Made by a program: the position numbers and the translations under genes. From Nemertoderma westbladi (lineage: Eukaryota; Animalia; Xenacoelomorpha): a stretch of DNA of 58,093 nt. The stretch covers positions 1 to 58,093 of the forward strand of contig JAUCBJ010007347.1 of the NCBI GenBank assembly GCA_032718475.1, written 5' to 3'. The notes beneath the pieces were generated by a model, which saw nothing but the letters and a program-made list of their open reading frames with translations, made no database searches and was not told where the DNA came from. Positions 6,881 through 37,505 of this stretch are shown one piece after another; within the stretch, counting starts at the first letter, position 1; every line of letters starts with the position of its first letter.

Positions 6881-6881
6881 T

Positions 6882-6893: not shown

Positions 6894-6950
6894 TACCTAT
6901 CTACGTGTATAGGTATTGGTTTTTTTTCTTAATAATATTATATTAATGTT

Positions 6951-11518: not shown

Positions 11519-11531
11519 AGGAAGGAAGTAG
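11519..11531 (+). promoter_or_regulatory. Polypurine tract of element 2
   Basis: AGGAAGGAAGTAG directly before the 3' LTR. Confidence 0.8.
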
Positions 11532-11719
11532 TGTGGTATATATATAATGTACTACCTACCTGTAGTACAGTATGGTACCGGTACTGGTCTTCTGTGACAG
11601 AGATATACATACATTTTGAGATATACAATATATCCGGTTGGCGATCAGCCTGTTGATATAGGCCTACTTTTATATATTATACCGGTACTGTACTACGGTA
11701 CCCGGCCCGGCATACTACA
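11532..11719 (+). repeat. 3' LTR of element 2
   Basis: Matches 6693-6880 and is followed by the TSD ATCAA. Confidence 0.95.
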
Positions 11720-15669: not shown

Positions 15670-15792
15670 TGCGTAGAATATAGTCAACCACAATTATTAA
15701 CAGCATATCAAACTTCGCAAGTGTGTCACCCTGGAGGACTCCCCATAACACTTTGAATGGTTCTGTGTCACCGCAAACAGTAGACATAATGT
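15670..15792 (-). pseudogene. Continuation of the same RTE-like RT relic beyond the inserted elements
   Basis: GVLQGDTLA..IIVVDYILR motif. Joining 12426 to 15670 restores the sequence seen at 50230-50250 (GACA|TGCGTAGAA). Confidence 0.85.
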
Positions 15793-16683: not shown

Positions 16684-18249
16684 CGTTCGTGGGGCCTTCG
16701 CGCAGCACGAGGCCCAGTTATGAGATACAAATTAAAATTGAGCGACTGTATCACAAAATCAGGTTTTGAAAAATTTACCTACACCACCAATCAATCAAAG
16801 AAAGGGGGACAGTACGTGTTCACCCCTTTTAATCCCCCCCCCCCACCCTTCCCAACCACCAATACATAACCGCGACATCTACCACCCACGGAAGGGTAAC
16901 ACGAACTTATTTTCAATCGCACGTTCAATATGCAAAGCCAGGTGGTTTATAGGAATATAATAAACGCAGTACTCGTTTTCATTATAAGCCTCGTTGCGTT
17001 CGTCCTGTTTTGTATTTAAATATATTTCTTAAACGCAGGCTAGGACGTTCTTTATAATAATAATAACTAGGGATGCGATCAATATGTGAAGCCAGGTGGT
17101 TTATATAATAATTTAGTCACCGCAGTACTCGTCTTCATTATATGCCTCGTTGCGCTCGTCGCTCGTCGCTTGTCCTGTTTTGTTATAAAATATTTTTCCT
17201 AAACGCAGACTGACGATCTTTATACAGTTATAACTATGCGAAATTTAGAAACTGTGCGAGTAACTGTTGATACATCTATGTATGTGGAGATGTGTGATAC
17301 AACGCCAACGCATCGTATGCTGATGTAGTAATATGGGTATTGAAATAATATTAAATTAATGTACACTCTTATAGCTGCAGCGAAAAAATGTAGCTAATTT
17401 CCTAGGTTACATATAAAATAATAATAATATTTTTAAGAACATTAATTTTACTACTTTGCAAAAATTCAATTAAAAAATAACCAGACATATACATTGTGGA
17501 ATAAACTATTTCAGAAGCCTACAACAGCCATGCCATGGATAGTATTTATGTTATTATATCTGTCATTTACCTGAGATAGCAATACAACACTTATAGTAGA
17601 GTCAATACAGGAAGGATGTTGGGATGTTGGAATGTTGTGTGGGCTGGAATAGCAATACTGGTTGCCTATTACTATTCCTCTCTGGTTAGTCTTAGCAACA
17701 ACTCCCTGCCAGCTAGCTCCACACCAGCAGAGACTTGACCAATAATCATTCCCAGCAACTAGCTGCTTTACACACACATCCTTCCATCGTACCAGCATGT
17801 TGGCCAATAAATGAGCAGTATTTAATGAGAATCAATTTTTTTTGCCGTTTTAATTACTTTAGATCAATTAAAGACACAATTATTAAAGCAAATCACTTGA
17901 ACTAATTAAAAACTATAATAGAATGGGGTATGTGGATTACATCTGTATAATTTTTAATTATAATTATTTAAATCTTATACTGTAAAACAATTAATTTCCT
18001 TTAAAAGGCAGGTTGAAAATGGTGTTTTTACCGTAATAACTTAATTAACTAATTAACTGCTATTATCTTAGCTTCTCGAAGGCCACACGGAAATTCTACT
18101 TGGAAAATTTCTAAACTTTTGCCAAACAACATGTGTACCAAGTTTGGATAGATTTCATCAAAGATTGGCCGAGTTATTAACGTTTAAAATTGAACGCGAC
18201 AGAACGACAGAACGACAGAACGACAGAACGACAGAACGACAGAACGACA
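16684..18249 (-). mobile_element. Family 1 copy C, lacking its own 56-bp terminus
   Basis: Near-identical to copies A and B up to the microsatellite, then continues directly into family 2. Confidence 0.75.
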
Positions 18250-18794
18250 CGTTCGTGGGGACTTCGCGCAGCACGTAGTCGGCAAGCCTTGGCATACTGT
18301 TCATATAGAGCAAATGGGGCATGTCTAGTTTGGACCCAATATCCCATGCTATAAATGTATTCATTCGATATACAATCATATGTTAATCCGCTAGGAGGTG
18401 TCAAATTGTTATTCTGCAATTTCGTACTTACCAGTGCAGCACTGTACAGCAGTACCGTACCGGTAGGCCTATGTCATTACTTCTGAGTCTCTAGCGGATC
18501 CCCAATTAAATGTCTTAACTTTTCAATTTCGTAAAAGATAGAGTTCATGATTCTCTACAAGCCACCAAAATTTCAGCTCAGGAAAATGAGGCCTTCCCGA
18601 GAAATTTAACATTTTCTAAAAACCACATAATCTGTCGTAGCTGACGTCAGACTGCATGATTTTCACCAAACTTTACAAACTTTCTAAACTTTCTCTCTAC
18701 TACTTACCTACTAAGTTTGGTTCAATTCCGAACCAGCGATGCAGAGAAATTTGCGTTCAAACATTTACCAGACAGACAGACAGACAGATGGACA

Positions 18795-19979
18795 TGTACG
18801 CGCTTTTGAAGACCTTTAGCTGTTTAACCTGCCAAAATTTATATGTCTTTTGGTTTATAAATAGACTTTAGAAAATGACAAGTATTTAATACCAATAAAC
18901 ACAACATTAGCCGAAGCCAGCCTAGTGCGCGTCCATTCACCCGCTGGATATACCCGGGAGACTGGATTCGGAGGGCTTAGATTGTTATTGCAGTGTAAGC
19001 TTACTGTATTATTCGATTGATCGTTAATAAATAATTTCTGACCAATATTATTCACTTTCGGGAAATATTAACAGTTCCTTTAGGACGTGGCGCTCTATCT
19101 AGGTAAACAGAGATATGACTTATACTAAACACAACGGTAAGTCGGTAAGGCTTATATGATTCACGTATGAGGCGCATTCTTTAGGAGATGCTTAGTTATC
19201 AGCCACAATCATGCACACTACCGGTAACGCACAATACTGCTCACTAATCTGCCGACCTTCAATGAATTTTATCATACATAAAGAGAACAGCAATTGACTC
19301 ATGTAGTGCTTATCAAATAGCATTAAATTCACTACAAACCACAATAATATAAGTCGCAATCGCTATATGTAACCCGTCTCTCTAACCTGTAGTGTATCAA
19401 GAAAATTGGGAAATTTGGGTTCTTTATAGATGTTCTCCAAATAATAATATTCAACCAACTGATACAAATAATGACAACAGTAAATAGCAGTATAATAATG
19501 TATGTTGCAGTGATATAAGACTGCTGCTGATTGCACTGATAACAGTTATACGTTCTATAATCTAAGCCTACTAATGTTTCTTCTAAAGTCTGAAACGAAT
19601 TGACTCTAGAGCCGGTGTTCTTGGCCTAGATAAAAACAACACAACAGTATCAAGAAAAAACAGTAAGACAGAACACGCCTAGCACGATCTGTAGAAAATC
19701 TCCACATCGACAGTAAAAATCGCCCTGATTGGCTGTTAAGCTAAACAAAGAACCATGTGTCCAATGGCCGTTTCCATGCCAGCAACCAGCTGTTAGATGT
19801 CGTAATCTGAATCATCAAGGCTACACTGTGCTAGAGTATTTGACGCATTGCGGGTTTTATGCCTTGCCATGTCCGCCAAAGCACATATATAGAAGAATGA
19901 CTTTTATGTCCGTTAAAACACCTACAACGGTACTTTGCGGGACAGGGGACTGATTATATCCTGATAAAAAGCTTTTACA
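18795..19979 (-). repeat. 3' LTR of the BEL element
   Basis: Matches 36051-37230; preceded on the minus strand by a short purine run GGGAGCGG. Confidence 0.95.
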
Positions 19980-20057
19980 CCGCTCCCAGAAAATGGGATT
20001 CAAGTCTACAAATATACAAAAATCACAGTTTCTAATATATGTAAATACTCTAAACAG

Positions 20058-22580
20058 TTAGTCTTTCTTGCGCGGACGGCGTTTACGCAGTTTTTTAAAG
20101 CTGGCCAGAGTCCTTTTCTCTTTGGGGCGAGCCACTTTACAAGGAGGGCTATAACTCCTGGGTGAAGGGTGCAATATGATTGCATCAGAGGGTGTAGGAT
20201 TATGGTCGGTGTATCCGCCAGTCGAAGTACCGGGTTGATTGACATCAACGTCGGGGGAGAGGGGTCTAACGGCCTTGAGAGCGCGTTTTAGGACAGCGGC
20301 TCTTACGGGTCCTTTACGAGTGGTCTGAACGAGAGCCGTGGGTGGACCATAGGCAGTCAGAAACCTCCTGGGTTTAATGGTTCTTTCCAACTCGCGTTTG
20401 CGGGCTCGGTATTCGTAAGGCCGTCGATATACTTCCTGTAACTCGGGGTGTGAGTTAACAAATAAGTCTCCATAGTCCGGATCCTGACGGATATAATTGA
20501 TTAAGTTATAGGAATGAAGGTCGCTAGGATTAACACTCCTGAGAAATTTGCGTACGAATTTGGTTGAAATACATTCTCCGATGCGCTTCAGTAGTTCGTA
20601 ACTCGATATGCGTGATTTCTGTTCGACAGAAGCGAATAGATAAGGATGGAACGCATAAACTCCTTCGTAAGCGCATCCAGGATAATAGCGATGGCGCGAA
20701 TCACAATGTAAATCAGCGTTCGCTTCCCAAGCTCTGATGTAACGTAGTATGATCATTTCATCTACGCTTTCCAAATCGTGATTAAAAGGGCAATCGAAAC
20801 TGGCGTGTCCCTTTAGTTGACAATGGTGACATTGAGTCATAAATTGAGGGCAAACCGCAAAAATATGCAAGTTATTGAGTCTGCAATATGCGCAATAAAT
20901 TTCCATCGTCGGTTGTTCTTGGAAATAGGAACAGCGGACGTTTGTGTCCATGGGCGTAACATGGTCTCTCGATGCGCATAACCGACAACGTTGCCTAGAA
21001 ACATATTTGGCATGTCGATAATCGTACGCAGTGAGACACTGTGGACCTTGATACCATTCTAGGATGTAATCGTTGTCGCTGTTCCGGGGCGCGATAGGCT
21101 GAATCTCCTCAGATTCTAGGCATATTGGTTCGTCTTCCCAGTGCATAGCTGAGGTGGGTGTGTCTGTCTCTTCAAGTGGACCTATTGTCTGAATTTCCAC
21201 GACAGAATAACCTGTGGGGATTCGAGGTCTTTGTATAACAGAGGAGTGCAAGTTCGATATACAAATCTCTTTGAAAATGGCAAATCCAGCGCTATCCAAC
21301 TTCTCTGCAGCTGAGTTTCTTAGGCTGAGCTTGGTCAAAGCGCGGTCTTTAAATTGGCTATCCACGTTGCGGAACGGGGTTAAAAATCGCCGGAAACATT
21401 CGAAGCGGATGAATTTATTATGTTCATCTAGCTTAGCGAGTTTGGTCCCAAGTATTAATGGATGGGCGCGTATAGTACAACTGCACACATCGGCTAGCCA
21501 ACCGGCAAGTGCGGTGTTTTCAAAGATCGTGTAGATAGCTAAGGAGGGGCGGAGTGGAACACTCATGAAGCTATACACGGCGCCAGGTGCGGTCAATGGT
21601 CCATCAAAGTATAATCGAGAATAATGGTCTCCGTATACTTGTTGATAGTTGATGGGATTTCCGACTTTGAAATTCCATCCGTATTCCTGAAAGCCAAGAT
21701 GTCCGATGGAAGTTCGTTGCACCTTTGTAATGTTGCTAGACGTATTAGCATACATGGTGCGGAAGAAACCTCGACCTTCTGCCCAGGGAGCAATCAGCTG
21801 CGTATCCACGAAAGGATATGGGATATTTTCCATATTCCGAAAGTCGTTTTGGAGATCTCCATAAACAGCTGAGCCGATTTTAAGGATTCTTTCGTTGAAT
21901 AACATCTCGAGTACGGGCTGGGGTAACATCGATCCATCGATACCCATGGCCGGTTTGCGTTCGGTGTCAATGACGTAACGCTGCGCGAGTTCGAATTGTC
22001 CATGTCGGAGATTCTTTTGTGTTTCGGTGAGAGTTTCAAAGGAATAATCAATCACGGCGGAACACGCTCGAGTAAACACGTGGGTAGAACCAGCTAATCC
22101 GCGTATGTGGATCATGCGCGTAGTTCCTAGTTCTCCGACCGGAACGCTACCTTCATTATCGTAGGTAACAACTCCATACATCTCAATAACATTAAGAGTT
22201 TCATTCCACTCCTTGGTGGCGTTCTCTAGGGTCATCCCTACTGGATGCCACAAGGTGGCGCATTGGTTAGCGTCAGGGAGATCACTATACTTCATGTGCC
22301 GAGTGGTATACGTCTCCACATTTCCATATCTTTGTATTTTCTCTTCTTCAAATAATACATCTAGATTCCAATGGACTAATCGAGTTTTAATAAATCCATC
22401 GAGATTATAAGGAGGTTCTATATCCTTCTCGATTCTAGAAATGTTACATGGTTTTCTAAATGAGTTTACCTTTACTAACTGATCCAGATGTTTCTGCAAT
22501 TGTTCGAGTTCGACAATGTCTAGAGGATTTATTAGTGGTAGAAACTTTAAATTATGCGTCGGGTCTTCTGGTTTTACCAT
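20058..22580 (-). CDS. Accessory ORF: DEDDy-like 3'-5' exonuclease, Cys/His zinc knuckles and a basic tail
   Basis: 840 aa with VVTYDNEG (ExoI), LPQPVLEMLFNERILKIGSAVYGD (ExoII), FVDTQ and PL....IYTIFE (ExoIII-like). Also CRLC..DH, CAYC..H...C, CHHCQLKGHASFDC, and a KKLRKRRPRKK tail. Confidence 0.65.
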   Translation of the reverse strand: MVKPEDPTHNLKFLPLINPLDIVELEQLQKHLDQLVKVNSFRKPCNISRIEKDIEPPYNLDGFIKTRLVHWNLDVLFEEEKIQRYGNVETYTTRHMKYSDLPDANQCATLWHPVGMTLENATKEWNETLNVIEMYGVVTYDNEGSVPVGELGTTRMIHIRGLAGSTHVFTRACSAVIDYSFETLTETQKNLRHGQFELAQRYVIDTERKPAMGIDGSMLPQPVLEMLFNERILKIGSAVYGDLQNDFRNMENIPYPFVDTQLIAPWAEGRGFFRTMYANTSSNITKVQRTSIGHLGFQEYGWNFKVGNPINYQQVYGDHYSRLYFDGPLTAPGAVYSFMSVPLRPSLAIYTIFENTALAGWLADVCSCTIRAHPLILGTKLAKLDEHNKFIRFECFRRFLTPFRNVDSQFKDRALTKLSLRNSAAEKLDSAGFAIFKEICISNLHSSVIQRPRIPTGYSVVEIQTIGPLEETDTPTSAMHWEDEPICLESEEIQPIAPRNSDNDYILEWYQGPQCLTAYDYRHAKYVSRQRCRLCASRDHVTPMDTNVRCSYFQEQPTMEIYCAYCRLNNLHIFAVCPQFMTQCHHCQLKGHASFDCPFNHDLESVDEMIILRYIRAWEANADLHCDSRHRYYPGCAYEGVYAFHPYLFASVEQKSRISSYELLKRIGECISTKFVRKFLRSVNPSDLHSYNLINYIRQDPDYGDLFVNSHPELQEVYRRPYEYRARKRELERTIKPRRFLTAYGPPTALVQTTRKGPVRAAVLKRALKAVRPLSPDVDVNQPGTSTGGYTDHNPTPSDAIILHPSPRSYSPPCKVARPKEKRTLASFKKLRKRRPRKKD

Positions 22581-22586
22581 ATAATA

Positions 22587-23471
22587 TCAAGTATTATCGA
22601 CGAGTATACCGTCAACACGAGCGGCCTCGATCGGTGGACGCTGTAACATAGGGGCGTCAGCGATAAGATTTTGCGATCCTGTACTGATATCAACCGGTTG
22701 AGGTTGTATCGTCGCGAAGAGTTTGTCTCCGAAATGTGGAATCATCGAGGGATGACGGACGGTTTTAGAGTAGAGATCTGTCATAAGGATTTGAGCTTCG
22801 GGTTGGGCTAAAGCGGCTTCTTCTCTCTCGTCCATTTTCGTGTGTTTCTCCTCGAGTAGATTTTCTTCCGCTTGTCTCTGTAAGCGTTCATCTAGAAACT
22901 CTTGTAGAGAATACGTGCGTCCAAGCTCGATGTCCTCCTCGAGGTTTTGGATTTCTCTATCGAACTGTGGCAAGGCTAACTCCTTCACCGATTGGACTTG
23001 TTGTCGTAATTTACGTTTCTCTAAACAATCTTGTGTTCCCTTTCCGATCTTCTGTCGAATAGCGTCTAAAGCGTTTCTTATAACGCTCTCCTCGACTTCC
23101 GTGGCGGGTTGCATCGGGTTTAATCCTGGACGATTGTAAGGATCAAAGGGCGATATTAGCTGCCCGCGTCCCAATCCGGCTAAGTAGGATGGGCGAATGT
23201 CTAACGAACCCACTACTGGAGCACCACCGATTAATTGTTCGGGTAACACTAAGTCTTTGAACAGGGAATATAGTTCGGGAGGATCAGTGATACTGTTAGG
23301 ATCAAGAGTTTGAGGTCTCACTAGGGAATGAGGAGGCCTGACCGAGTATTCCGGAACTCTGATCATGGGTTTATTCAGTGATCGTTTAAGACGAGCGATC
23401 GTAGGTGATACGTCGAACAGGTTTCGCTCGAAACTCCCGTAAGTATAACGCGTAAAGCTGTGTTTACGCAA
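22587..23471 (-). CDS. Accessory ORF of unknown function, with a coiled-coil-like acidic segment
   Basis: 294-aa ORF in frame with the exonuclease ORF, separated by one TGA plus two codons. Confidence 0.5.
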   Translation of the reverse strand: MRKHSFTRYTYGSFERNLFDVSPTIARLKRSLNKPMIRVPEYSVRPPHSLVRPQTLDPNSITDPPELYSLFKDLVLPEQLIGGAPVVGSLDIRPSYLAGLGRGQLISPFDPYNRPGLNPMQPATEVEESVIRNALDAIRQKIGKGTQDCLEKRKLRQQVQSVKELALPQFDREIQNLEEDIELGRTYSLQEFLDERLQRQAEENLLEEKHTKMDEREEAALAQPEAQILMTDLYSKTVRHPSMIPHFGDKLFATIQPQPVDISTGSQNLIADAPMLQRPPIEAARVDGILVDNT

Positions 23472-24196
23472 CGTCTCCGCGGATGTTTATGTCTTTCAGT
23501 TTGTTGGTTGGGTCTAGGGCATTCGTCACAATAATACCAAAGACGTACGTCCTGTAGAGGAAACGCGGGTGATCGTTCTCCAGTTTTGCAATATTCTTCC
23601 ATTTGTTCAAAACTATCCGGGATAACAGGTAGTGGACGATCGGCGGTAAGATACATCATAGTGAAATAGAGCCGTTTGAGTTCTACCATAGGGTCATGAT
23701 GTATACCTTGAGGATATCGAGTCTCTAGGTTCTGCTGACTGGCGATGTTGAGATAGGTTTCTCTCAAAAATTCTAGGTAGTCGTTGAAGTCGATGCGTTT
23801 ATCCGGTTCTTCAACGTTTTCTCTTTCCAGTCTATTAGGAATAGAATTTTCGTGATCTATTCTCGGTTTATCATTACGACTCCGCTGGGTATGATATTTA
23901 AATAGAACCATTTCCCTTTCTGTATCTACATCGTCCGTATCATGTAAATCGATAGGATGGCCGGTAGTTAAGAAGTCCATATACGTACCATTACGATTCG
24001 TATAGAGAGCGGTGAATTTTCGATAGTCCAATTCACGCGCAAGTTGCTCTTGGGACATCGACGGTTCAATATAACGACCATCGTCCTCCGTAATGGTTGG
24101 ATCGGCTTCACCGCGTATTAAGCTATCCACAAATGCTTGTAAGGGTAGAGTATATCGCTCCCTAATACCAAGATCATCTTCTATCAACTCCGTCAT
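23375..24196 (-). CDS. Accessory ORF of unknown function
   Basis: 273-aa ATG-initiated ORF overlapping the next ORF in another frame; possibly one frameshifted gene. Confidence 0.5.
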   Translation of the reverse strand: MTELIEDDLGIRERYTLPLQAFVDSLIRGEADPTITEDDGRYIEPSMSQEQLARELDYRKFTALYTNRNGTYMDFLTTGHPIDLHDTDDVDTEREMVLFKYHTQRSRNDKPRIDHENSIPNRLERENVEEPDKRIDFNDYLEFLRETYLNIASQQNLETRYPQGIHHDPMVELKRLYFTMMYLTADRPLPVIPDSFEQMEEYCKTGERSPAFPLQDVRLWYYCDECPRPNQQTERHKHPRRRCVNTALRVILTGVSSETCSTYHLRSLVLNDH

Positions 24197-25808
24197 ATCT
24201 GCTATCTGAGTTTATTAATATCAAAATGAGTTTATGTTTAGGCTAGCGGGCGTTGCTGCCTACCTCTCGTTGCCCCCGGACAGTGGGATTCTCAGCGCCG
24301 ATGTACCGTCGTCGCGGTGTTTACGCCAACATGTAGCAACAGCACGACAACGATAACTGGCACAAGTCACTCCACTGTCCGTCGCAAAGGTTTGGATCCA
24401 CTTTAGGTTCTTTCTATAGGAGAGTTGGGTTACTTTCACAATTGCGACTAGCTACTGTAAACATACTTTAGCAGTAACATTCACCTATAAACGCACAAAT
24501 TCCACACAACTGTCACCAATTGTACACATACAGGCCATTTGTCCGTTAGTCAGTGCCTTCCAGAATGTCACGTTATTACTGTGTATCCTTGGATACTAAC
24601 AGTGTGCTATGTATTCTCTATGCTATGCAATGGGACAAGCTTTCTATTGTTCTTTTAACTTGCTTCTAATTCTAGCGTGGTTGTTGCTATGGTGACATTA
24701 TGGAAAGCTAGCGGTAGAATTAGGGTAATTTTCATGCATACAGATCTGGAATGCTATTTAATAGTAATTCTTTAATTGTCAATATCCTCTTTATACATGA
24801 TTTTATTAATTTTATCGGCTATTGACTATATGTCGGAGATTCTCGCACTCTAATACACTCAATAGGATGAATCTCCGCTCCCATGATCTATTAATTAATG
24901 GAATTTTGGGAATGTTATAAATTGCACAAAATGACAATTTATGAAATTCATTTAAAATATGAATTTAAATTTATTCCCGTGAATTTTATTATTTGATGTT
25001 AAAATTGACACAATTTTTATTCCAGAGCATGTCTGGGGACTGAGGATCCTTAATTCTATAAAATTGTCTTTTAAGAGTATCGGTAAGACTTAACTGACTA
25101 GAAATTTTAAAGGATCTGAATTTTACAGATTTTAATAAATATTAAATTAATATTTAAGATGGGCACCGATTTATTCCAGAACTTGTCTGGGGACGTTAAC
25201 CACTGATTCTAGAATTTGTCTTTCAAGTATATCGGTGGGTGCCGCGATATCTTAATCGACTAGAATTACAGATGGTCAAAAGGTTTAACAGATTTATTTG
25301 CGTTTTACGCTACTGTTATAGGGACATCACGCTACTATATGTATTATTATATATGGTATGAGAGCAATATCGCACGAAGCAATGTCAGTGTGAAGAGGCA
25401 AGTCGTTTCCAAGGTCTACCCAGAGCTTGGTTTAGCCGAGACACGAGGATCTGAACTTTGCATTCCTAATACTCTGCCTACCAATAATACTTGAATATAG
25501 TAGTGGCTTTATTGTACTTTAATAAGTATGGACATTTCATCTTACTGTAGTCACGTATTTATAATATGATACGGACAGTAAGGAAAAAGAAAAAATTATT
25601 TCTCGCCGTCACACTAAATATATATTATATATATGTAATTACGTAATAAACACTAATATATTGCACTAACCTACTAAATAATCTAAAATAACATTCTACT
25701 AAATAAAATTAAATAAAACGATTATAATAAAGTACATAATAAAGTTCGCATATAAAAATATAATAAAAATAGATAGAATAATATAGTCATACACCCACTC
25801 CAGACGTA

Positions 25809-28445
25809 TCACGTTGGGGAGTCCCTAGATGTTTGAGGAATTAGGGAGGTGATCGTGGGAAGAGTGTCTTGCCTTCCATAGTTTCCGGAGAGTTCTCTGT
25901 CTCTTTCCAGTAAACATAAACGACCAACTGGGCGGTTGAGTTGTTGCGTCTCAAAGATTATGCCTGGCTTCTTGAAGTTACGCCGCATGACGACGAGTTC
26001 TACCGAGCGTACTAAACCATCATCCGAGATGTGAGTCTCGATGATACGACCTGTCTGCCACCGTTTACGTGGAAGGTCTGAATCTACAATAAGCACCATA
26101 TCTCCAGCGCTGACGTTTTCTTGCTGCGCAAACCACTTAGTTCGAAGTTGTAGCGTGGGCAGATAATGTTTCTCGAAATGGTCAGCGAAACGACGGGATA
26201 GCAACTGCATAAGTTGCCAAGTTCGACGGCAGTATTCGTCTCCGTCGGTAATCTCCGATCGTGGGAGCATGGCTACAGGTTTCTTCAGTAGGAAGTGCGC
26301 GGGTGTTAGCGCTTCCAGGGAATCGGGACTCGATGAGACTGGCATAAGCGGTCTCTCATTGAGATAGGCAGCTATTTCCTCCATTAACGTCCGCAAAAGT
26401 TCGTCGGTGAGATACGCGCGGCATGGCACTATAAAGTGAAATGCGGTCTTGACACTTCTAATTAATCTCTCCCAACTTCCTCCCCACCAAGGGGCGTCGG
26501 CGGCGTTGAAGGTCCAGCTAGACGCTGTTATCCTTAGCTGATCGTCCACCTGTCTTTGGTTCCAGTCCTTCACGTAAGCCTGTATTTCGTTGTTGGCACC
26601 AATGAAGTTCGTTCCCTTATCCGATCTCATGGTATTACTCGTCCCGAAGCGAGCGATCTGTCGGCGTAAACTTAAGACGAAGCTGTTGGTAGATAGATCG
26701 TTCACCATATCGAGATGGATGGCTCTACAAGTCATGCATACGAAGATGACACACCATCTCTTGACTATAGTCCTAGCACGATATACTTCAATAGGGCCAA
26801 ATAAATCTACACCAGTATTAGTAAAAGGTGGTTCATAGAAGCTTACTCGTTCCCTAGGTAATTCTGCCTCTCGCTGTGTTAAAGGCCTACTGAATGCTTT
26901 CCTACAGGGTATGCAGTTCCTAAGAACTTGGTTCAGAGCTCTACGGGGTTTATCAAAATAATAGCGAGTTCGAATTTCGCTAAGAACTCGTTCTCTACCA
27001 GCATGATAAAGTTTGCTGTGAACATCTACAATCATCTTGATTTGTACTTCAAGATTTCTAATGAGAATGGGGAATTTAGTGTCAAAGGATAATGGCGCAT
27101 TGGTGAGCCTTCCTCCAACACGTATTAACCCATCTATCATTGTGCTGGAGAATCGATCCCTTAAGCGCATCTGCGGATTTCTCAACAACAGGAAATACTT
27201 ATCGGAAACCTCATAGCATTGCAGGAGTCTCAGTATCTGCTTATTGGTTTCTTCATGCTCCTGGTAACTAATTTTCTCCTTTAGAAACCGGTCGGATGTC
27301 TTATATTTGGGTAAATTTTTAATAACATGAACTTGCGCAGATGTCAATGGAGCGGTATCACTAATGGTCTTCGTCCTGGAGTAGTGATGATGAAAACATC
27401 TCCTTAAATACGTGACGGCTTTACAGAGCCGATTCCAGGAACTGTAGTGATGCATTGCTCTCTGCAGCAGGGGTGAGATTCCTTGCGAGACGTCTGGTAT
27501 TCCAGATTTCCAATCTCTATCTCTAATTTCCACAACAGACTTATTTGTGGCGAGGGATTGTGGATCCGAAGCATCGTTTCCGGAAGTATGTAATACAGAT
27601 AGATCGATAGTCGGTTTAAATAACTTCGATTTACTCGCCCGGGTTTTAGGTTTGACTTTCTCCGCTCCCTTGGCTTGTCTAATCTCCGCCGTAGTAAGGT
27701 GAGGAGGCCATTCATCCTCTTCCTTACTCAGGAAGTCGGGTCCACTCAACCAGTCTGGAGTATCTATCAGTTCCTGTGGAGTCGCTCCCCTGGAGGCGAT
27801 ATCGGCTGGATTAATCGTACCAGGGCAATGTCTCCATTGATCTATCTTTGTGCGACTAAGAATAATAGCTACCCTGTTAGTAACAAAAACCCTGAACTGA
27901 CAGACTTCATTGGTTAGATACTCCAACACGAGTAAAGCGTCGGTCCAATAAACAGTTTTCTCCAGTGGATAGTCGATTTGTTCTGTTACGTTCCGGCCGG
28001 TGGCTGTAGCGTATAAAGCCGCCTTTAACTCCGCTCGAGGAACCTTTAACTTGTTGTTAATCAATGCCTTAGAGGTAACCAAGGCGACTTTGATTCCATC
28101 CGGAGTTTCGACTCGCAGATATGCTACTATACCTATTCCCATGTCGCTGGCGTCTCCAAACACATGGAGTTGATAGGAATAGGTAGGAAGAACATGACCA
28201 AAATTAAAAATTAGGGAAATTATAAAGCTCTCGATGGCAGGTAGAGAATCTTCCCATTTCATCCATTTCTTTAACAGTTCTCCCTTAAGTGGATCGTCCC
28301 ATGAGTGGTTTTCAAGCCACATTTGTTGTACTAAACTCCGAGCAATCAATATAACTGGGCTAATAAATCCCAATGGGTCGAAATAAGTGCTCAGGATACT
28401 TAAACAAATCCGTTTGGTCCGAACTGGATTATCTCGCTGTCCCAC
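25809..28445 (-). pseudogene. BEL/Pao pol, RNase H and integrase part
   Basis: TKR..LS...FDPLG, HVFGDAS, PRAEL, WTDA, NPADIASRG, H...HAG..C..C, DLFGP, SDKGTNF, WERLIRSVK. Joined to RT across a frameshift near 28430. Confidence 0.9.
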
Positions 28446-31400
28446 TTCAAGCCAAGCGTCTTGGTTTCTGGAAGATCATCCTTTATTAAGTCTAGGTCTT
28501 TCGCTCCTTGGTCTTCTACCGGTATCGCTTCCAGAAACTCACGGGAGTTGCTGGTGAATTTCGTCAGTCGAAATCCACCTCTTTTCAAACACTCTACCGT
28601 TCCTTTCGCGACATCAATGGCTTCTTCTACTGATGGAAGGGACCTTAAATTGTCGTCCATGTATATATTACGCTTGATGTTGTCTATCACCTCTTTTGAG
28701 AAGGCGTCTCGGTTGTCATTCGCAGTGGTCCGCACCACGGAGCAGGCGTTGGAAGGGCTAGATATGATCCCAAAAGCCTGGATGGTCATCCAGTACTCTA
28801 CCGGTTTCTGGTTGAGATCTCCTTCAGGCCACCACAGAAATCTGAGGCTGTCTCTATCTCTATCCAGCGCCTTGACTTGTAAGAACATTCCTTCTATATC
28901 GGAGGCGAACGCGATGGAATATTGTCTTAATCTTAAAAGTATTCCCAACAAAGATTGGAGTAAGTTGGGTCCTGGTAACAACTCGGAATTGAGGGATTGG
29001 CCCATATATAGAGCAGAGCCATCGAATACGACTCGTACTTCATGGGGTTTACCGGGTTTGGGAACGTAATGATGTGTTAAGTAATACGTTCTCTCAGTCA
29101 CTGGTGTTCCTTCCGGTACTCGCTCCGCGTATCCCTTTGTAATAAATTTCTTCAACTGAGTTTGGTACATTTCTTTAGCTGAAGCATTAGCCGTAAGGCG
29201 TCGATGTAATTGAGTGATTCTTTTCTCTGCCAAGGGTCCGTTATTTATAAATCTAGGTTCTCGTTTTCGAAATGGTAGGCCGATTTCATATCTACCTTGA
29301 TCTTTTAAAAAACGTGTAGTTGTTTCCTGGATTTGCTTGGCTCTTTCTTCTTCTATCGATAGGGCCTTATCGTATGAATTGGGCTCTACCAATTCTTGAG
29401 TAAAGAATCGTACGGCGAGTTCGTCCCGAGTTCTAGCGTTGTAGCGCTCTATTTCATCATTTAGTTCGTCATTGTAGTCAATGGGTCCCGATGGGCGAAT
29501 CAGTTGACCTAGGTTCACCTGGTTTTTCCAAGTTTTGTTTTCTGTAAGTAAGTCGATTGTGTTCTCTTCATCGAAGAGTTGGTAGATGTCGTCATTATCT
29601 GAGGAGTATGGTGTTCCCTCAGTTAGTTCGTCCACCTCACTGCTCTCCACTTCCCAATCGTTTACTTGGTATATTCGTTCTTGTGGCATTCTCTCTTCGA
29701 GAGTTCTGCGGGAAGGGCCAGTAAAGTACCAACCTACTCTAGCTCTTACCGCATAGGTTTGCAGTGGCTGCGGTTGAGCAGGCCGTTTCTCCAATGTCTC
29801 GAGCGCCTCATGCGCGTTTTGGCTGATGAGTATTTGCACTCCAGGATAATCTGTCTGGAATCGAGGTATCTTAAGCTGTTGGATGCTCTCATCCTCGTCC
29901 CAATTATAAAGATATGCTTGGGTAGTAGCAAAGTTCTTTATAGCCACCATTTTTACCGACCTTATACCTTGTGCTCCTAATTTATCCTGGGGGGTGGACA
30001 ACACACCTACATAGTAATCTGCCGTTAGGGTAGATTTCCAAACCTGCATAATTCCTGACATATTCAATTTAGTCCGGAATTTGGGTTGTCCAGCAAAGAT
30101 ATCTTCGGCTAGTTCTTGATCGATGAATGTTCCTGTGCTGCCGGAGTCAAGGAGGGCGTTCACTATGTAACTTTTGTTAGGACCGTGAACTCTTACCTGC
30201 ACTACAGGAAATTCTCTGATTCCTACATTGGAAGTTGGAGCTTTCCAAGATGGTTGTCTGTCAAAGGTAGTTGGGGGGAACTCATTGTCGGTGTCCTTTT
30301 CGTAAGTAAGTGCTCAATACACCGCGGTATTGATTAGGTAACAGGATTCGTTGGCGTCAGAGAATTCGTCAGTATAGAATCCTTCCATCTCAGACTCTTG
30401 ATCAGTGTCATTTACATCACTGAATTGGACATGTAGTTCGGGCTCACTTACCTGACTCGAGTTGTCTCGTTCGAATTCACTGTGTAACAAGATGTGATGT
30501 TTCGCACCGCACTTTGCACACTTTACGTCGGAGTAACAGGTTCGCCGTTGGTGTCCTGATCTGAGGCAATTATAGCATAACCGCTTATCCCACATGACTG
30601 CACGTCTGTCTACAAGGGATTTCTTTAGAAATTCAGCACACGCACTCAAATGATGGGGCCCGTCGCACAGCGCACAGTTTGGTTTGATGTTACTCACTTT
30701 ACCTTGGGTAACTTGATGCACTCTCGTTCTTTCTTCGGGCTTTCTTCGGTGCATTCTGTTAGGAGACTGAGGAGGGGTCTTGGCAACCTGTTCTCTCCTA
30801 TCGTTGGTTCGAGCCTTGTATTTACTTACGTCTTTTGAGATTTTGTTAACGTAGTAAAATTTGTCAGTGTCTTTTCCGCTGTCCTCTTCTTGAGAAGCTT
30901 GGCTTTCGCCGTCATCAGTGTAACACACTGGTGTTACTCTTCTCCTAGAAACGGGTTTCTCACTTACCTTATTTTCCGATGTCTTCTCTCTGGACTGCTT
31001 GATGAGTTGTAGTTTTACTTCACCATCTAAGAAGGACATGAGATCAGCCATGGTAGGGCTTCGTCGTTGCTGCTCATTCATATACAACACTTTCTTGTCC
31101 CAACGTGTACATACTCCACCCTTTGGTAAAGTAGAGACTACGGCTCCAATAACCATGGAACTCTGATATTCATGAGACTTACCTAACCAGTCCAATTGTC
31201 TACAGATCTCCTGAATCTCATCGGAAAACTCTATAATCCCGCTACTAAGGAAGTTTCTGGGGGCTACTAATTTTGCATACAAATACTTAGCTATGTTATC
31301 CTTGTTACCATACCTGATGTTTAATGTATCCCAAACTTGTCTTAATCCATCTGGATGTCCAATAAACTTTAACGCCATTCACTTGGGAGGTCCTTCCAAG

Positions 31401-33778
31401 CACTTGATGAGGAATCTAAGTTTCTCTCCGTTAGATAGTACAGAGTTCTGTATGCTATCTTTGTAATATTCATTGAAAGGTAACCATTTCATCTCATCTC
31501 CATTGAATTTAACGATCTCTCCCACTTTGACCGCTTGGCGGGCTTCTGTTCTAGCCATCTGACGCGTAAAGCTTTCTTGGGCCATCGTGTTATTTAATAT
31601 CGAATTATCGGTATATAAATTTCTCGGATCATTATCAGGTCTATAGGGAATATCATTAACAACAGGTTTATAATCACCCTTAATAGGGTTTGCTATAGGA
31701 GTTTCTACTTCACTAGCAGTATAGATGCGTGTAGGCTCCACACCTTGCGCATGTAATACTTCAGACCTAACAGGTTGACACAATGTTACTGGGGGTATTG
31801 GTATACCCTTTTGTATATTGACTAATTTGTCACGTTCTAGCGCGATACTTTGCTGCACTTCTTGCAATTCTGCCCTACTTTCCCTTACTGTTCCCTTAAA
31901 TTGGTGGACAGTCTCCTGCATCTGTCCGAGCAGGAGATTCATCCCCCGCCGTCCCTCCTCTACCCACTCGACCGCCGAAGCGGGAGTCGCCAACATTGTA
32001 GCGGGCCGACGCGGGACGACGGGAGACAAATCTTTGATTTCTCTCTCAGCTTCCAGGACAGGAATATTCTCATGGACTGTTCTACCGGGTACAGGCAGTG
32101 TAGTACTGTGTAAAGGGAATTTAGAGTTAAGCTCTGGAAGTACAGGGGTCTCTAGTACAGGAATGGCTTTGGGAACGACAGGCCTAATTATTTCAGGCTC
32201 ATCAACTATTGTAGGGAGTCTTTTGACCTGAATAATTTGGTCTGTGGGTTCTGTACTACCTAAGTCTGTGCTAGCTAGTTGTCTTCTAACCGCTGGGGGC
32301 AAATCAGGCAATTTGTGACGGTGAGATGTTTTTCTACGCCTGCTTAGACGAGATCTATTTCCTCCGCCTTCAGGATCGGTGGTTTCGCTTTCCTCCGATG
32401 ATGTGTATCCCTGGCGTTTGGGAGTAGATCGTCTCATCATCTGCATTTGACTAGCAGTTAACTGTTTATTTATGTTGTCTTGCGTCTCTTGCAGATTTTC
32501 CAACTCCAGTTGGGTAGTCTGCTCAGACGCTCTCCGTTCTGCTTCTGCCACTGCCTTTGCCGCCTTTCTTTCCGCTTCTGCTTCTGCCATGGCCGCTGCC
32601 TTTTGGTCCTCTATCCGTCTTTTCTTTACTTGTTCTTCTTGGACTCTAGCGAGGCGGAGTTTTTCATCAAATTTAGCTTGGTTTGCAGCTAACATTTCCG
32701 CATCGATTGAGTCCAACACAAGCTTGGCTCCTTCACTATTGGGGCGAAGTCCAGCCAGTCATCTCCTCAACTCTTCATCACCCAAGAAGCGTTGATAGTC
32801 TGACAGATAGATGTCGATGGCGTCTCTCGTTCGCGGTCTCTCTGCTGTCCCTTCGCTTTCCTCTTGAGAAAGGGTGGCATCGGTTGGTTCTTCATAGGTT
32901 GGTCTCTCAGCCAGCTGGGATTTCCACTGGGCCGTTTCTTGTACTTTGAGACCTACCCGTTGGAACCAAGTCTTGACAGCAACCTGCAGCGACGTGTCCT
33001 GTCTTCTTTTGGAAGTTTCCTCAAAGGCTGATAGGATTAGTCTAATGCGTAGGGTTCTTTCGCGTACTTGATATAGCAGCTCTTCCTGCTCTTGAGGTCC
33101 TTGGGGTTGTCGAAACAGTTGTTCTTCTAATCGCTCTAAGGAGCCGAAGAATCCCTGCACATATCCTGCTGCCGACCTCTTCCAAACAGCTGGATCCATC
33201 GTATCTTTAGTCACTCCCATCCTGTGTATGTCTTCCTAAGTAGCTTCGGACAAATCTAACGGGAGTCCGGGTCTGGGAAAGTTCCATTGTGACTCGACAA
33301 TAGACATCAATTCTTCCCTGGCGTATCCCGCATAACTATCTTGGGTCGCTCGCTTACTTCTCGCCCAATTGACTTGGTGTTCCTCCACCGCAATGAATAT
33401 AGTTGTTAATACTGCGGCAGGAAGGGTGAGAAGGGGATCCGAGTAGGCTGTAGCCGCCATCTGTACTCCGCGTTCGGGGGTCAGCTCTACAGTATCCGAA
33501 CTACTGGAGCTATCGGGTCGCTGGGAACAAGTTTCTTGACTAGGATGTTGCTGCTGTTGGACAGCTGCTTCCTGGTTCCGTTTGACTTGGGCTCGAGTGC
33601 CGATGATAGACCTACGGTGTTGGATTAGCCTAGGGTCTGATACTACTACTGGAGGGATGACTTTTCTTTCAGTAGGAGGTGAGCTGAACCCCTTTCTTAA
33701 TCGCTCCACACTCCTATCTGTGTCACAGATGGTTGTATCGATTAGACTGTCTGACAGGTTTTGCTTAGTGTCAGACAT
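28400..33778 (-). pseudogene. BEL/Pao gag-protease-RT reading frame with four in-frame stops
   Basis: ORFs 33236-33778, 32759-33220, 31379-32719, 30314-31378 and 28400-30202 share one frame. Triple knuckle CALC..H..C/CYNC...GH....C/CAKC..KHH.LLH, protease LLDSGS, RT RVVFDGS, DIEGMFLQ, YMDD. Confidence 0.9.
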
Positions 33779-33885
33779 GTTTATCTATACAGTTGAATGC
33801 TTACTGCTATAGTTACAGTTAAAGCAAGTCTAGTAATTCAGTATGACCGTTGGCCTAGTACCGGTAATTAATTACAGTATATTAG

Positions 33886-34130: not shown

Positions 34131-35123
34131 TCAATTATTTAAATAATTGAATTTCTGAATTTTAAAGGTTACTTAGTTACTTTAACTTACTTTATTACCG
34201 TTATTTAAGCAGTAGTCCAACTGATATTGAGACCTAGTTGTTGTATGGCAGGCCTACTATTTATAAATCGTTTGAGTTGATTTATAATATATATATACCC
34301 GTTTAAAATGGGTTTTGTCAATATTTGAAATAAATGTTATTATTTCTGGGGGGAGTCACTACACAGAAGCTGTGCGCTCTCAGTGAAGTGCTACGTGTTG
34401 GACTCTAAAACAAATAATTCTAATTTACCTAAGTTACTTAATACTACAAATTACGTACGATACGGGTGAGATTAATTCTCTAACTAAACACAACAAAAAT
34501 ATTACGCACGAAATTTTAGGGTAATTTTACAGGAAATCTACAAACCAGCCTAACAAAGGGTTAGGATTCTGGTTATTACAACGGACAGGGTACTACGGTA
34601 TTTGAAAATAATAAGTAGTAGTAAATATGTTGCGCTGTCCAGATAGGAAAAATACCACCGTCTGACGACCTATAGCCGTATCGCTATAGGTACTACGTTA
34701 TGTATCACAGAGTGTTCCTACCTGGAAGTTAATTACCGCGGACTACCAGATCCAACATGCCTATTAACCACTTTACAACACAATACACTGCCTACACACT
34801 AATTACTTTCGGAAAGCACTGTACACTAAACCCTAAATTAGGTACAAGTACTTATTAAAAACAGATAACTAGCAGTTAAATATACTTGAACAGTTAAAAG
34901 AACCACGGCATCTGCTGGAGTGACTGGAGCACAAAATCACCAGTCTTTACCTACGCCAAGCAGCCCATGTAGTACCGGGGTTAATTTAACTATAACGGTA
35001 TGTGTAACAAGCACAATTACTGTAGGAATAAACTTGGGGACATGAATGTTGCGAATAATCGCATAAACTCTGAATAATAAATATTACGCTACCCGTACAG
35101 AATACTCAAACAAAATACAAACC

Positions 35124-35655
35124 AAACGCTGGCAGACTACCACCAAGCCTAAATAAACTACAGTATGTGCAGATTCCAAAATGGTTAGTTAGTATGCGTT
35201 CTAACACGGTGGTACGACTTATTCTTTAAGAGGGGATTGACCTTACAGCTCTGGCTGCCCCAACTTACTAACTGGCACTTTATCAGATAAACTCTACACA
35301 CGCAGCAATCTCTTCAGACCTAATAATAGCTAGACAACAATCCAGCCTACAAAATATCTGAGTAATAACTATTACGGTACCTGAACAGACCACACAAACA
35401 AACACAGGCTAAAACGCTGGCAGACTACTATCAAGCCTAAATAAACTACAGTATGTGCAGATTCCAAAATGGTTAGTTAGTATGCGTTCTAACACGGTAG
35501 TACGACTTATTCTTTAAGAGGGGATTGACCTTACAGCTCTGGCTGCCCCAACTTACTAACTGGCACTTTATCGGACAAACTCTACACACTCCGCAATCTC
35601 TCCAGACCCAACAACAGTCAGACAACAGTCCAGCCCACAATTATCTGAACAATCT
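35124..35655. repeat. Tandem duplication (period about 289 bp) in the BEL 5' leader
   Basis: AAACGCTGGCAGACTAC...GGCACTTTATC occurs at about 35124 and 35413. Confidence 0.85.
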
Positions 35656-35824
35656 GAGCAGACTTACATGTCTTCAGCTCAATATTAACTTACTAGGAAA
35701 TAAAACTGACAGAAATAGACCTAAGTAAAATCCCAATAAAAACCAGGCGTCCCCGATTTAATATCGAGACCTACCGGTATACAATAATCAAAATCGAATA
35801 ATACTAATGTACTTATACTGGAAG

Positions 35825-35988
35825 TACCGGTTAGGACAGTTGGGCCTACCGACCTACAGCAGTACCGGTTCAGGCAGTTAGGCCTACGGACCTACAGCAG
35901 TACCGATTCTGGCAGTTGGGCCTACGGACCTACAGCAGTACCGGTTCTGGCAGTTAGGCCTACGGACCTACAGCAGTACCGGTTCAGG
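35825..35988. repeat. 38-bp tandem repeat x4 in the BEL 5' leader
   Basis: TACCGGTTCWGGCAGTTRGGCCTACGGACCTACAGCAG units. Confidence 0.9.
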
Positions 35989-36050
35989 TTTACCGGTCGA
36001 CCGGTACTTTCAACTTTATTGCTTACTGCAATAAAGAAAATAACTGTTAT

Positions 36051-37230
36051 TGTACGCGCTTTTGAAGACCTTTAGCAGTTTAACCTGCCAAAATTTATAT
36101 GTCTTTTGGTTTATAAATAGACTTTATAAAATGACAAGTATTTAATACCAATAAACACAACATTAGCCGAAGCCAGCCTAGTGCGCGTCCATTCACCCGC
36201 TGGATATACCCGGGAGACTGGATTCGGAGGGCTTAGATTGTTATTGCAGTGTAAGCTTACTGTATTATTCGATTGATCGTTAATAAATAATTTCTGACCA
36301 ATATTATTCACTTTCGGGAAATATTAACAGTTACTTTAGGACGTGGCGCTCTATCTAGGTAAACAGAGATATGACTTATACTAAACACAACGGTAAGTCG
36401 GTAAGGCTTATGATTCACGTATGAGGCGCATTCTTTAGGAGATGCTTAGTTATCAGCCACAATCATGCACACTACCGGTAACGCACAATACTGCTCACTA
36501 ATCTGCCGACCGTCAATGAATTTTATCATACATAAAGAGAACAGCAATTGACTAATGTAGTGCTTATCAAATAGCATTAAATTCACTACAAACCACAATA
36601 ATATAAGTCGCAATCGCTATATGTAACCCGTCTCTCTAACCTGTAGTGTATCAAGAAAATTGGGAAATTTGGGTTCTTTATAGATGTTCTCCAAATAATA
36701 ATATTCAACCAACTGATACAAATAATGACAACAGTAAATAGCAGTATAATAATGTATGTTGCAGTGATATAAGACTGCTGCTGATTGCACTGATAACAGT
36801 TATACATTCTATAATCTAAGCCTACTAATGTTTCTTCTAAAGTCTGAAACGAATTGACTCTAGAGCCGGTGTTCTTGGCCTAGATAAAAACAACACAACA
36901 GTATCAAGAAAAAACAGTAAGACAGAACACGCCTAGCACGATCTGTAGAAAATCTCCACATCGACAGTAAAAATCGCCCTGATTGGCTGTTAAGCTAAAC
37001 AAAGAACCATGTGTCCAATGGCCGTTTCCATGCCAGCAACCAGCTGTTAGATGTCGTAATCTGAATCATCAAGGCTACACTGTGCTAGAGTATTTGACGC
37101 ATTGCGGGTTTTATGCCTTGCCATGTCCGCCAAAGCACATATATAGAAGAATGACTTTTATGTCCGTTAAAACACCTACAACGGTACTTTGCGGGCGAGG
37201 GGACTGATTATATCCGCAAAAGCTTTTACA
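36051..37230 (-). repeat. 5' LTR of the BEL element
   Basis: Matches 18795-19979 and is flanked by the TSD GGACA. Confidence 0.95.
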
Positions 37231-37505
37231 GGACATGCCCCATTTGCCCTATATGAACCGTATGCCAAGGCTCGCCGACTACGTGTCTCGCCCCACAGTA
37301 CAAGTGTACATAATTAATACAAACATTAAATGATTCATGTTATGAAATAGTTACCTTATTAATTTAAGCAGTTTTTAGAACCCGAATGTTTTGTAAACGA
37401 GTAGCTTCCATCAAGGTCATCTTAATATGATTGCCAAACACAATCAGAAGAAAATAACAGTGTGATGTGTGGGGAGGGGGGGGGGGGGTGGTTGTGCTGT
37501 ATCAA

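Follow-up and report, generated by a model that had tools for sequence, protein, structure and literature searches.

The window (the whole stretch of 58,093 nt that was analyzed) holds on its minus strand a complete 18,436-bp BEL/Pao retrotransposon of an animal genome, present in many copies. The question that it raises is what the long open reading frame in the env position encodes and what its product could do for the element. An earlier note on this DNA had described an intact 840-aa ORF within the LTR pair, between integrase and the 3′ LTR, and this ORF (here, ORF-C) was confirmed on the minus strand at 22580-20058. Read from stop to stop it spans 22586-20058 (842 aa), with the first ATG at 22580. 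The parts of the element are as follows.

37231..37235, no strand: target-site duplication, 5 bp, bordering the 5′ LTR
36051..37230, minus strand: 5′ LTR, 1,180 bp, TGT...ACA ends
35069..35988, no strand: leader repeats, 288 bp in 2 copies and 38 bp in 4.4 copies
25809..33784, minus strand: BEL/Pao gag-pol (gag, protease, RT, RNase H, integrase)
23375..24211, minus strand: ORF-A, 278 aa stop to stop, overlapping ORF-B in a different frame
22587..23486, minus strand: ORF-B, 299 aa stop to stop, in the frame of ORF-C and separated from it by one stop
20058..22580, minus strand: ORF-C, 840 aa, predicted DEDDy exonuclease with three zinc knuckles and a basic tail
19980..19988, minus strand: polypurine-tract position, a short purine-rich run adjoining the 3′ LTR
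18795..19979, minus strand: 3′ LTR, 1,185 bp, TGT...ACA ends, with 9 mismatches and 4 gaps relative to the 5′ LTR
18790..18794, no strand: target-site duplication, 5 bp, bordering the 3′ LTR

The two LTRs are 98.8% identical, have TG...CA ends, and are flanked by the target duplication. In Pfam searches, pol matched Peptidase_A17 (E 2.7e-33) and DUF5641 and gag matched DUF1759; these Pao-type domains lie in order (PR-RT-RH-IN), and the element was therefore assigned to BEL/Pao. Rfam gave no match within it. The description of the element as giant holds against the published BEL/Pao median of 7,382 bp, of which 18.4 kb is 2.5 times, but not against the published maximum of 22,762 bp. In the window copy, gag-pol carries four stops and one frameshift across ~2,659 codons.

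ORF-A and ORF-B both lie between integrase and ORF-C, and family profile searches gave no match for the former and no informative match for the latter; a longer third gene may exist, of which ORF-C would be the tail. An env identity was ruled out for ORF-C, which has no hydrophobic, transmembrane-type stretch (maximum 19-residue hydropathy of 1.1), and the element has no env. A separate nested insertion of the ORF was also considered, and there was no sign of one in the repeats or among the 15 joints listed of 160.

The predicted exonuclease domain and the zinc knuckles

Three parts of ORF-C bear on what it encodes.

21486..22253, minus strand: predicted DEDDy exonuclease domain, residues ~110-365 (D141, E143, D242, Y350, E354)
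20790..20987, minus strand: residues 532-597, holding three Cys/His clusters, of which the last is a canonical CCHC knuckle
20061..20138, minus strand: Lys/Arg-rich C-terminal tail, seen in the sequence

The motif residues named in the earlier note (D141, E143, D242, FVDTQ, Y350, and E354) all have the numbers that it gave, with FVDTQ at 257-261 and P342-L343 upstream of the tyrosine. Only one homologue turned up: P0001, which comes from one ENA record, a contig of 9,449 bp. It has the predicted exonuclease domain and three zinc knuckles and is ~29% identical to ORF-C over the domain. For Exo I, a D-x-E follows a hydrophobic strand in both proteins (D141/E143 in ORF-C, D62/E64 in P0001), a pattern that by itself arises in 19% of shuffles. 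MAFFT leaves the two D-x-E motifs out of register, and only a global BLOSUM62 alignment pairs them, by way of an insertion, ORF-C having ~29 extra residues after the third strand. For Exo II, the acid D242 follows LP...K-x-G. For Exo III, Y350 stands four residues before the last acid, and the WRN spacing (PL-x6-Y-x3-acid) is exact in both ORF-C and P0001. That acid is not the canonical Asp, as had been suspected, but Glu (E354 in ORF-C, E233 in P0001), and since P0001 has the same residue, Glu at Exo III is a family trait. Judged by its motifs, the predicted domain is a variant (D-E-D-E) rather than a canonical DEDDy member.

Several profile and embedding searches agree with this assignment, each of them weakly. 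The RNase D profile TIGR01388 matched residues 221-266 directly (E 0.0023, among 18,950 models). In the ESM Atlas, 25 of 30 matches of the ORF-C domain fell in PF01612 clusters (score, 0.93), as did matches of P0001 (score, 0.94); the ORF-C match shares 166 features, slightly below the tool's guide value of 170, and the top clusters consist of ~213-aa proteins, most frequently from basidiomycetes. A profile of four sequences had human EXD2 as its sole PDB match (E 2.1), and among the weak matches in PHROGs one was an exonuclease (E 0.14). With hhalign, the ORF-C domain was linked at 94% probability to a fungal-type Dada exonuclease, which itself exceeds the PF01612 cutoff and matches WRN at E 1.2e-7; this link is partly circular, because the loci L001 and L002 were picked with a pattern drawn from Exo II, and the L001 match was reported to residues 110-134 of the profile. 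The motifs in order were found in 0 of 200,000 shuffles, a significance that is overstated because the pattern was composed after the sequence had been viewed. The matches point to both the RNase D and the WRN/EXD/Mut-7 groups. Neither protein reached the PF01612 gathering threshold (no match for ORF-C, E 0.2 for P0001), and the full ORF-C had no Pfam match, including to an HRDC or helicase domain, and no relevant PDB match. Two AlphaFold models (pLDDT 29.9 and 30.9) were unusable for placing the acidic residues, and Foldseek with the second gave no match at E <= 0.001.

Overall, several weak, concordant sequence tests support the reading of ORF-C as a DnaQ/DEDDy protein with zinc knuckles, and the domain very probably has the predicted DEDDy fold. 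Catalytic activity is somewhat better than an even prospect, because D141, E143, D242, and Y350 are kept over ~70% divergence and Glu retains the carboxylate. A published alignment of viral and cellular enzymes gives D alone for Exo III and allows D/E at Exo II (PMC7968707), and the Glu may therefore weaken or abolish catalysis.

The C-terminal features were as described earlier. The clusters are C532-x2-C535-x4-H540-x9-C550, C563-x2-C566-x5-H572-x4-C577, and the canonical C584-x2-C587-x4-H592-x4-C597. The region matched zf-CCHC_3 at E 0.0029, and its best PDB match was yeast Air2 (E 0.26); the knuckles of P0001 matched retroviral nucleocapsids (E 1e-4). An origin of the ORF-C knuckles from the element's own gag was not supported (E 0.24). 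The last 120 residues contain 30 K/R compared to 9 D/E, and this basic tail could serve as a localization signal or in RNA binding.

Copies of the element and selection on ORF-C

Relatives of the protein were few. Word-seeded searches, which like the other homologue searches covered proteins of 128 to 1,470 aa, returned nothing for ORF-C and only itself for P0001, and a two-sequence domain profile returned nothing at E <= 10. No relatives were found in scans of IMG/VR and GTDB or by tblastn against plasmids. A further candidate, P0002, was discarded because its match is compositional, the protein being made of low-complexity acidic repeats.

Sister copies of the element do carry the ORF: all 30 bins of ORF-C were covered in four of four runs from four studies, one of these runs (X4) being guessed to be RNA. 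Five of the seven contig pieces listed in ORF-C were gap-free, at 81 to 93% identity, and of the 12 indels listed, none lay in ORFs A to C. A derivative that skips 21138-23826, and thus lacks the exonuclease domain, was present in three of the four runs. Third positions made up 14 of 18 polymorphic coding sites compared to 3 of 13 sites private to the window copy (Fisher P 0.004), counts that rest on 31 coding sites among the 40 listed of 4,288 differences; the polymorphic sites in ORF-C itself were all at third positions (3 of 3), as were 6 of 7 in ORFs A to C. The earlier argument that ORF-C has been kept open while gag-pol decayed did not hold up, since an open ORF-C beside a broken gag-pol is expected by chance with P ~0.21, and ORF-C of the window copy also shows private changes at first and second codon positions. 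Together, the copies support ORF-C as an accessory gene integral to a BEL/Pao family that has many copies and diverged subfamilies.

Possible functions of ORF-C

The reading that we tentatively prefer, while giving it less than an even chance, is that ORF-C is an accessory DEDDy exonuclease with knuckles that acts in trans as a counter-defense factor against silencing RNAs. The protein would be expressed from a 3′ subgenomic RNA, its knuckles would capture RNA, and the exonuclease would trim or degrade the RNAs, small or antisense, through which the element would otherwise be silenced. Action in trans is proposed because the derivative without the exonuclease domain recurs among the runs. An analogy is arenavirus ExoN, which suppresses host innate signaling (PMC7968707). 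A Mut-7-like silencing role is mentioned by Rodriguez et al., who pictured it as self-limiting and doubted it (PMC5408684). It counts against counter-defense that the same paper gives the rotifer DEDDy ORF3s no clear link to copy number.

A somewhat unlikely alternative is that the nuclease is a replication factor that trims the 3′ ends of the element's own nucleic acids. In its most specific form, an RNA overhang would be cut back to an 11-bp duplex of LTR and primer site, yielding a tRNA-independent primer; in another form, cDNA ends would be tidied before integration. The sites concerned are the following.

36040..36050, minus strand: primer-site position, with 11 nt that pair exactly with a stretch of the LTR
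36793..36803, minus strand: complement of the primer site, LTR positions 428-438, with a second copy at 19539-19549

A tRNA-type TGG primer site is absent at the position directly after the 5′ LTR, where the first 11 nt pair exactly with LTR 428-438, and both observations favor trimming of an RNA primer; two gypsy elements in the window carry ordinary TGG primer sites. Such complementarity was reached in 6 of 5,000 shuffles (19 of 5,000 with offsets of 0 to 3 allowed) and, within the leader, at 4 of the 2,220 remaining positions. The candidate self-complementary, Tf1-like primer site had not been described in the earlier note; no paper on a self-priming BEL/Pao element was found in the literature searched (most subscription journals outside). 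However, the pairing probability of primer site and LTR is just ~0.09 in the whole R-U5-leader fold, and in Tf1 the primer is produced by RNase H, with no exonuclease involved. 3′-end processing has been proposed for the DEDDy domains of rotifer elements (PMC5408684) and of Dada (PMC3706591). The fullest version, in which a tRNA-free family uses the knuckles to hold RNA while an active D-E-D-E nuclease trims to the 11-bp duplex and so finishes the primer, is quite unlikely.

The Glu at the Exo III position of both family members is also what would be expected of a DEDDy fold with lost or weakened catalysis, joined to knuckles in an adaptor that binds RNA for packaging, transport, or the sequestering of silencing factors, as with EXD1 and Maelstrom. 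Inactive RNA-binding DEDD derivatives are known in the piRNA pathway (PMC5408684, PMC7968707), and binding would need no more than three knuckles and a basic tail. However, two proteins only ~29% identical over the domain have retained the Tyr and the remaining three acids, and Asp to Glu is a conservative change; we consider such an adaptor fairly unlikely. A proofreading role is improbable, in which a DNA 3′-5′ exonuclease would correct RT errors and so permit a genome of 18 kb, much as ExoN does in nidoviruses with their RNA genomes (PMC7968707). The length of the element relative to the BEL/Pao median would fit it, as would the resemblance of the Exo II region to WRN and polymerase-type domains and the DEDDy domains of rotifer Terminons of up to 40 kb (PMC5408684 and PMC6431247), but the gene stands apart from pol and its product is joined to RNA-type knuckles, and BEL/Pao elements of up to 22.8 kb are listed in a survey whose main text mentions no exonuclease. 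Least probable is a captured host or transposon fragment without current function for the element. Deletion derivatives without the exonuclease domain do exist, and intragenomic variation of the rotifer env and GDSL ORF3s is neutral (PMC5408684), whereas the gap-free relatives down to 81% identity and the third-position bias argue against a mere passenger.

If the preferred counter-defense reading is correct, ORF-C would be an enzyme that the element itself encodes to act against the piRNA pathway. If the exonuclease instead makes the primer, it would represent a new route of reverse-transcription priming and a first function for retroelement-borne exonucleases. With its many copies and diverged subfamilies, the family is a system in which selection, expression, and small-RNA effects can be measured, and the Exo III Glu in both proteins is a test of how much variation the DEDD active site tolerates.

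Comparison with known systems

DEDDy cargo has been published for rotifer elements (PMC5408684, PMC6431247), as the earlier note had correctly said, and for Dada transposons (PMC3706591). In the literature searched, no report of a BEL/Pao exonuclease was found among titles and abstract openings (most subscription journals and Repbase outside), nor a paper on an extra BEL/Pao ORF or a metazoan BEL/Pao env. Enzymatic cargo in the env slot, known in rotifer retroelements, would extend to a third retroelement group, and an exonuclease there would show that retroelements repeatedly recruit 3′-5′ exonucleases.

According to the available text on rotifers, the DEDDy ORF3s of the Juno and Vesta LTR retrotransposons and of the Athena/Terminon Penelope-like elements lie, like ORF-C, downstream of pol in the env position, and likewise lack a transmembrane segment (PMC5408684, PMC6431247). 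The host element here is BEL/Pao, whereas that text names only the Juno, Vesta, TelKA, and Mag clades (PMC5408684). Compared by description, the rotifer motif is reported there as DEED and that of ORF-C is D-E-D-E, the changed acid being the fourth; the same text mentions neither three C-terminal knuckles nor a basic tail in the rotifer ORF3s. The Dada DNA transposases of Laccaria and Ectocarpus likewise have a transposon-borne DEDDy domain, and L002, a Dada-like soil-metagenome locus, matches the Exo II region of ORF-C. In Dada, however, the domain forms an insertion within a DDE transposase and all four DEDD residues are intact, whereas ORF-C is a separate retroelement gene with an Exo III Glu (PMC3706591).

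ORF-C has its Exo I, II, and III motifs in the order and at the spacing of the cellular nucleases WRN, EXD2, Mut-7/Nibbler, and RNase D/Rrp6 (PF01612), but the direct scores of ORF-C are far below the family cutoffs, and it differs from them by the Exo III Glu and the fused knuckles. For priming, the closest likeness is to the self-primed Tf1/sushi elements, which this element resembles in the 11 nt that directly follow the 5′ LTR and can pair with its own LTR. Those are gypsy elements and this one is BEL/Pao, and for Tf1-type self-priming its LTR complement would have to be the first bases of the transcript.

Gene layout and primer site of the BEL/Pao element

Nine mismatches and 4 gaps separate the element's two LTRs, which have TGT...ACA ends. 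A 5-bp duplication lies on both sides of the element, and its gag-pol is of the BEL/Pao type by Pfam (Peptidase_A17, E 2.7e-33; DUF5641; DUF1759). The earlier note called the element giant; at 18,436 bp it is large yet no record, because the published BEL/Pao lengths in supplement 9 of PMC3118150 (median, 7,382 bp) reach a maximum of 22,762 bp. A 1.6-kb non-coding gap separates integrase from three reading frames, the last of which, ORF-C, is the predicted exonuclease gene.

36051-37230, minus strand, 5′ LTR
24211-23375, minus strand, ORF-A, overlapping ORF-B in a different frame
23486-22587, minus strand, ORF-B, in the frame of ORF-C with one stop between them
22586-20058, minus strand, open frame of ORF-C; the ATG at 22580 gives 840 aa
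18795-19979, minus strand, 3′ LTR

These ORF-C coordinates agree with the earlier note. Also present as described there were D141, E143, D242, FVDTQ, Y350, and E354 at their named positions, three Cys/His clusters (residues 532-597; the third has the canonical form), and a basic tail. The plus strand across this region has stops throughout. An env identity was ruled out for ORF-C because no membrane-spanning segment was found in it. ORF-A and ORF-B gave no informative family match in family-profile searches, including Pfam. ORF-A has a Cys/His cluster close to its end and an acceptor-like CAG immediately before its first ATG, and variation in ORF-A plus ORF-B (22587-24211, minus strand) is third-position biased (3 of 4 polymorphic sites).

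The claim that ORF-C stayed open while gag-pol decayed was not borne out. At the gag-pol rate (5 breaks in ~2,659 codons), 1.6 breaks would be expected in ORF-C, with a probability of 0.21 for none, and 2.6 in ORFs A-B-C, where two discontinuities were seen. Since intactness of ORF-C is thus compatible with chance, its contrast with gag-pol carries no weight. ORF-C may represent the C-terminal portion of a single gene ~1,380 codons long. The single stop parting it from ORF-B is six bases upstream of the ORF-C ATG. Among the relatives' contigs listed, the alignment of four ends at 22600, which means that the B/C junction varies among subfamilies.

A TGG primer site was absent after the 5′ LTR. 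The Tf1 self-priming model prompted a look for primer-site complementarity to the element's own LTR, and the 11 bases after the 5′ LTR (36040-36050) pair exactly with LTR positions 428-438 (36793-36803; second copy, 19539-19549). Complementarity of 11 nt was reached in 6 of 5,000 shuffles and also at 4 of 2,220 other leader positions; the predicted pairing of the site in the full leader fold was only ~0.09. After this Tf1-like self-complementary site come a hairpin (9 bp) and a palindrome (16 bp).

Other features of the window are as follows.

1-5390 and 6684-11719, plus strand, two gypsy-type LTR elements, each with a single open gag-pol ORF (1,512 aa in the first, 1,445 aa in the second) and, unlike the BEL/Pao element, a TGG primer site; LTRs of the first are identical over 192 bp, with no TG...CA ends at the aligned limits, and a 39-bp tandem repeat precedes its 3′ LTR
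5361-6374, minus strand, 337-aa ORF between the gypsy-type elements, with no Pfam match
12420-18253, ~1.55-kb repeat in three copies at 94-95% identity, parts of which occur again near 44720 and 48250
37295-44023, duplicated F-box genes (38763-39692 and 41920-43446) with weak C-terminal Glyco_hydro_39 matches
52828-55290, plus strand, ACAD11-like intronless gene of 820 aa with kinase-like and acyl-CoA dehydrogenase domains

Evidence for a DEDDy fold in ORF-C

Two matches for ORF-C came out of an exhaustive search against 1.84 billion representatives, and one of them was rejected as compositional. Identity between ORF-C and the second protein, P0001 (648 aa; E 1.3e-6), is 29% over residues 198-365, and a further match covers the knuckles, with the domains in the same order. 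The local alignment score was 155, whereas none of 300 shuffles exceeded 63; judged by sequence, P0001 is a real homologue. The Exo I motifs of the two proteins were not in register by MAFFT, a point against the DEDDy reading, and were in register, with a 29-residue insertion, in a global pairwise alignment.

The DEDDy reading in the earlier note drew evidence on both sides, and direct matches to known families were weak. For it are the motif set common to ORF-C and P0001, including Tyr-x3-Glu at Exo III; the match of the isolated domain to the RNase D model TIGR01388 (E 0.0023, residues 221-266); and ESM features, a tool whose calibration is not for partial proteins, by which 25 of 30 matches of the domain were in PF01612 clusters (0.93, 166 shared features). 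The same count was obtained for P0001 (0.94, 173 shared features). Against it, full-length ORF-C had no Pfam match at E 0.1 and two AlphaFold models gave no usable fold. The Foldseek search was uninformative, and full-length ORF-C had no relevant match in PDB. A two-sequence profile recovered two soil-metagenome loci, L001 and L002, from 365 candidates. The L002 exonuclease is above the PF01612 cut-off and resembles WRN (E 1.2e-7) and, more weakly, Mut-7 (E 0.053); against our profile, 33 Exo II columns aligned with a probability of 94%, a partly circular comparison. With a four-sequence profile, EXD2 was the only PDB match (E 2.1). The domain very probably adopts a DEDDy fold.

From its sequence, L002 looks like a Dada transposon. 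The two loci (L002, 2394-4966; L001, 644-1088) carry a Dada-like transposase with a WRN-like DEDDy domain, apparently intron-split.

Variation among copies of the element

ORF-C, whole or in part, was found in 6 sequencing runs from 4 studies and two organisms; the best-matching run may be the source sample. When the element was mapped with four runs, 30 of 30 bins were covered in every run, which supports the presence of ORF-C in sister copies. In one run (X1), 143,084 records aligned to the element, a depth that does not equal copy number. Among the pieces listed, 5 of 7 inside ORF-C had no gap, including stretches of 533 nt (100 differences) and 231 nt (44 differences). Among the 12 indels listed (291 more exist), 11 were non-coding and one was an in-frame 3-nt loss in gag.

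Among the 40 differences listed (4,248 more exist), 31 were coding, and third positions made up 14 of the 18 polymorphic coding sites (binomial P 1.4e-4). Sites private to the window's copy, where 99% or more of the depth disagrees with it, fell at third positions in only 3 of 13 cases (Fisher P 0.004 versus polymorphic sites). Within ORF-C, all 3 polymorphic sites listed were third positions, and the two private sites were a first and a second position. In this small sample of sites, picked by the tool for support, the pattern reads as purifying selection on the gene among active lineages and drift in the window's copy.

A deletion joint (21137 to 23827) seen in 3 of 4 runs skips 2,689 bases; it drops ORF-B and ORF-C residues 1-481, which include the exonuclease domain, and keeps the knuckles. 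Other run-contig joints remove part of integrase (25944-27655) or RT (27844-29589). Such internally deleted derivatives fit with element products acting in trans.

Possible function and comparison with known systems

The Exo III Glu is found in both ORF-C and P0001 and is therefore unlikely, as far as these two sequences indicate, to be a private decay mutation. We infer that ORF-C is probably catalytically active. The element's own gag is not a good match for the knuckles (E 0.24), whose best PDB match, a weak lead, is Air2 (E 0.26).

Because of the domain combination, the dispensability in cis, and the analogy with Mut-7/Nibbler and arenavirus ExoN, we tentatively favor counter-defence, in which the ORF-C protein would act in trans on silencing RNAs as an exoribonuclease guided by its zinc knuckles. 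The same nuclease might instead process ends or make primers, a role that we consider doubtful, and a catalytically weak RNA adaptor is about as doubtful. Proofreading is quite improbable, and the gene as a passenger is the least probable reading of all.

In the literature searched (titles, abstract openings, and passages of main text, mostly outside subscription journals and without Repbase), no BEL/Pao element was described as carrying an exonuclease gene; the word "exonuclease" has 0 occurrences in the main texts of PMC3118150, PMC2774666, and PMC13524379. DEDDy domains are found in other elements: as ORF3s in the rotifer elements Juno, Vesta, and Athena, where the text consulted describes activity as undemonstrated (PMC5408684), as ORF3s described likewise in Terminons (PMC6431247), and in Dada transposases (PMC3706591). 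Among cellular enzymes, WRN and EXD2 have a K-x-G Exo II and an Exo III spacing like those of ORF-C, and RNase D has a similar DTQ strand. WRN has Asp where ORF-C has the Exo III Glu, and the legend to a published alignment lists D alone at Exo III (PMC7968707). The rotifer exonucleases carry a DEED change, whereas the Exo III Glu of ORF-C is another change. ORF-C is a real, family-wide accessory gene, a known kind of cargo in a new element group, BEL/Pao; its altered active site and fused knuckles set it apart, and its host element also bears a self-priming signature.
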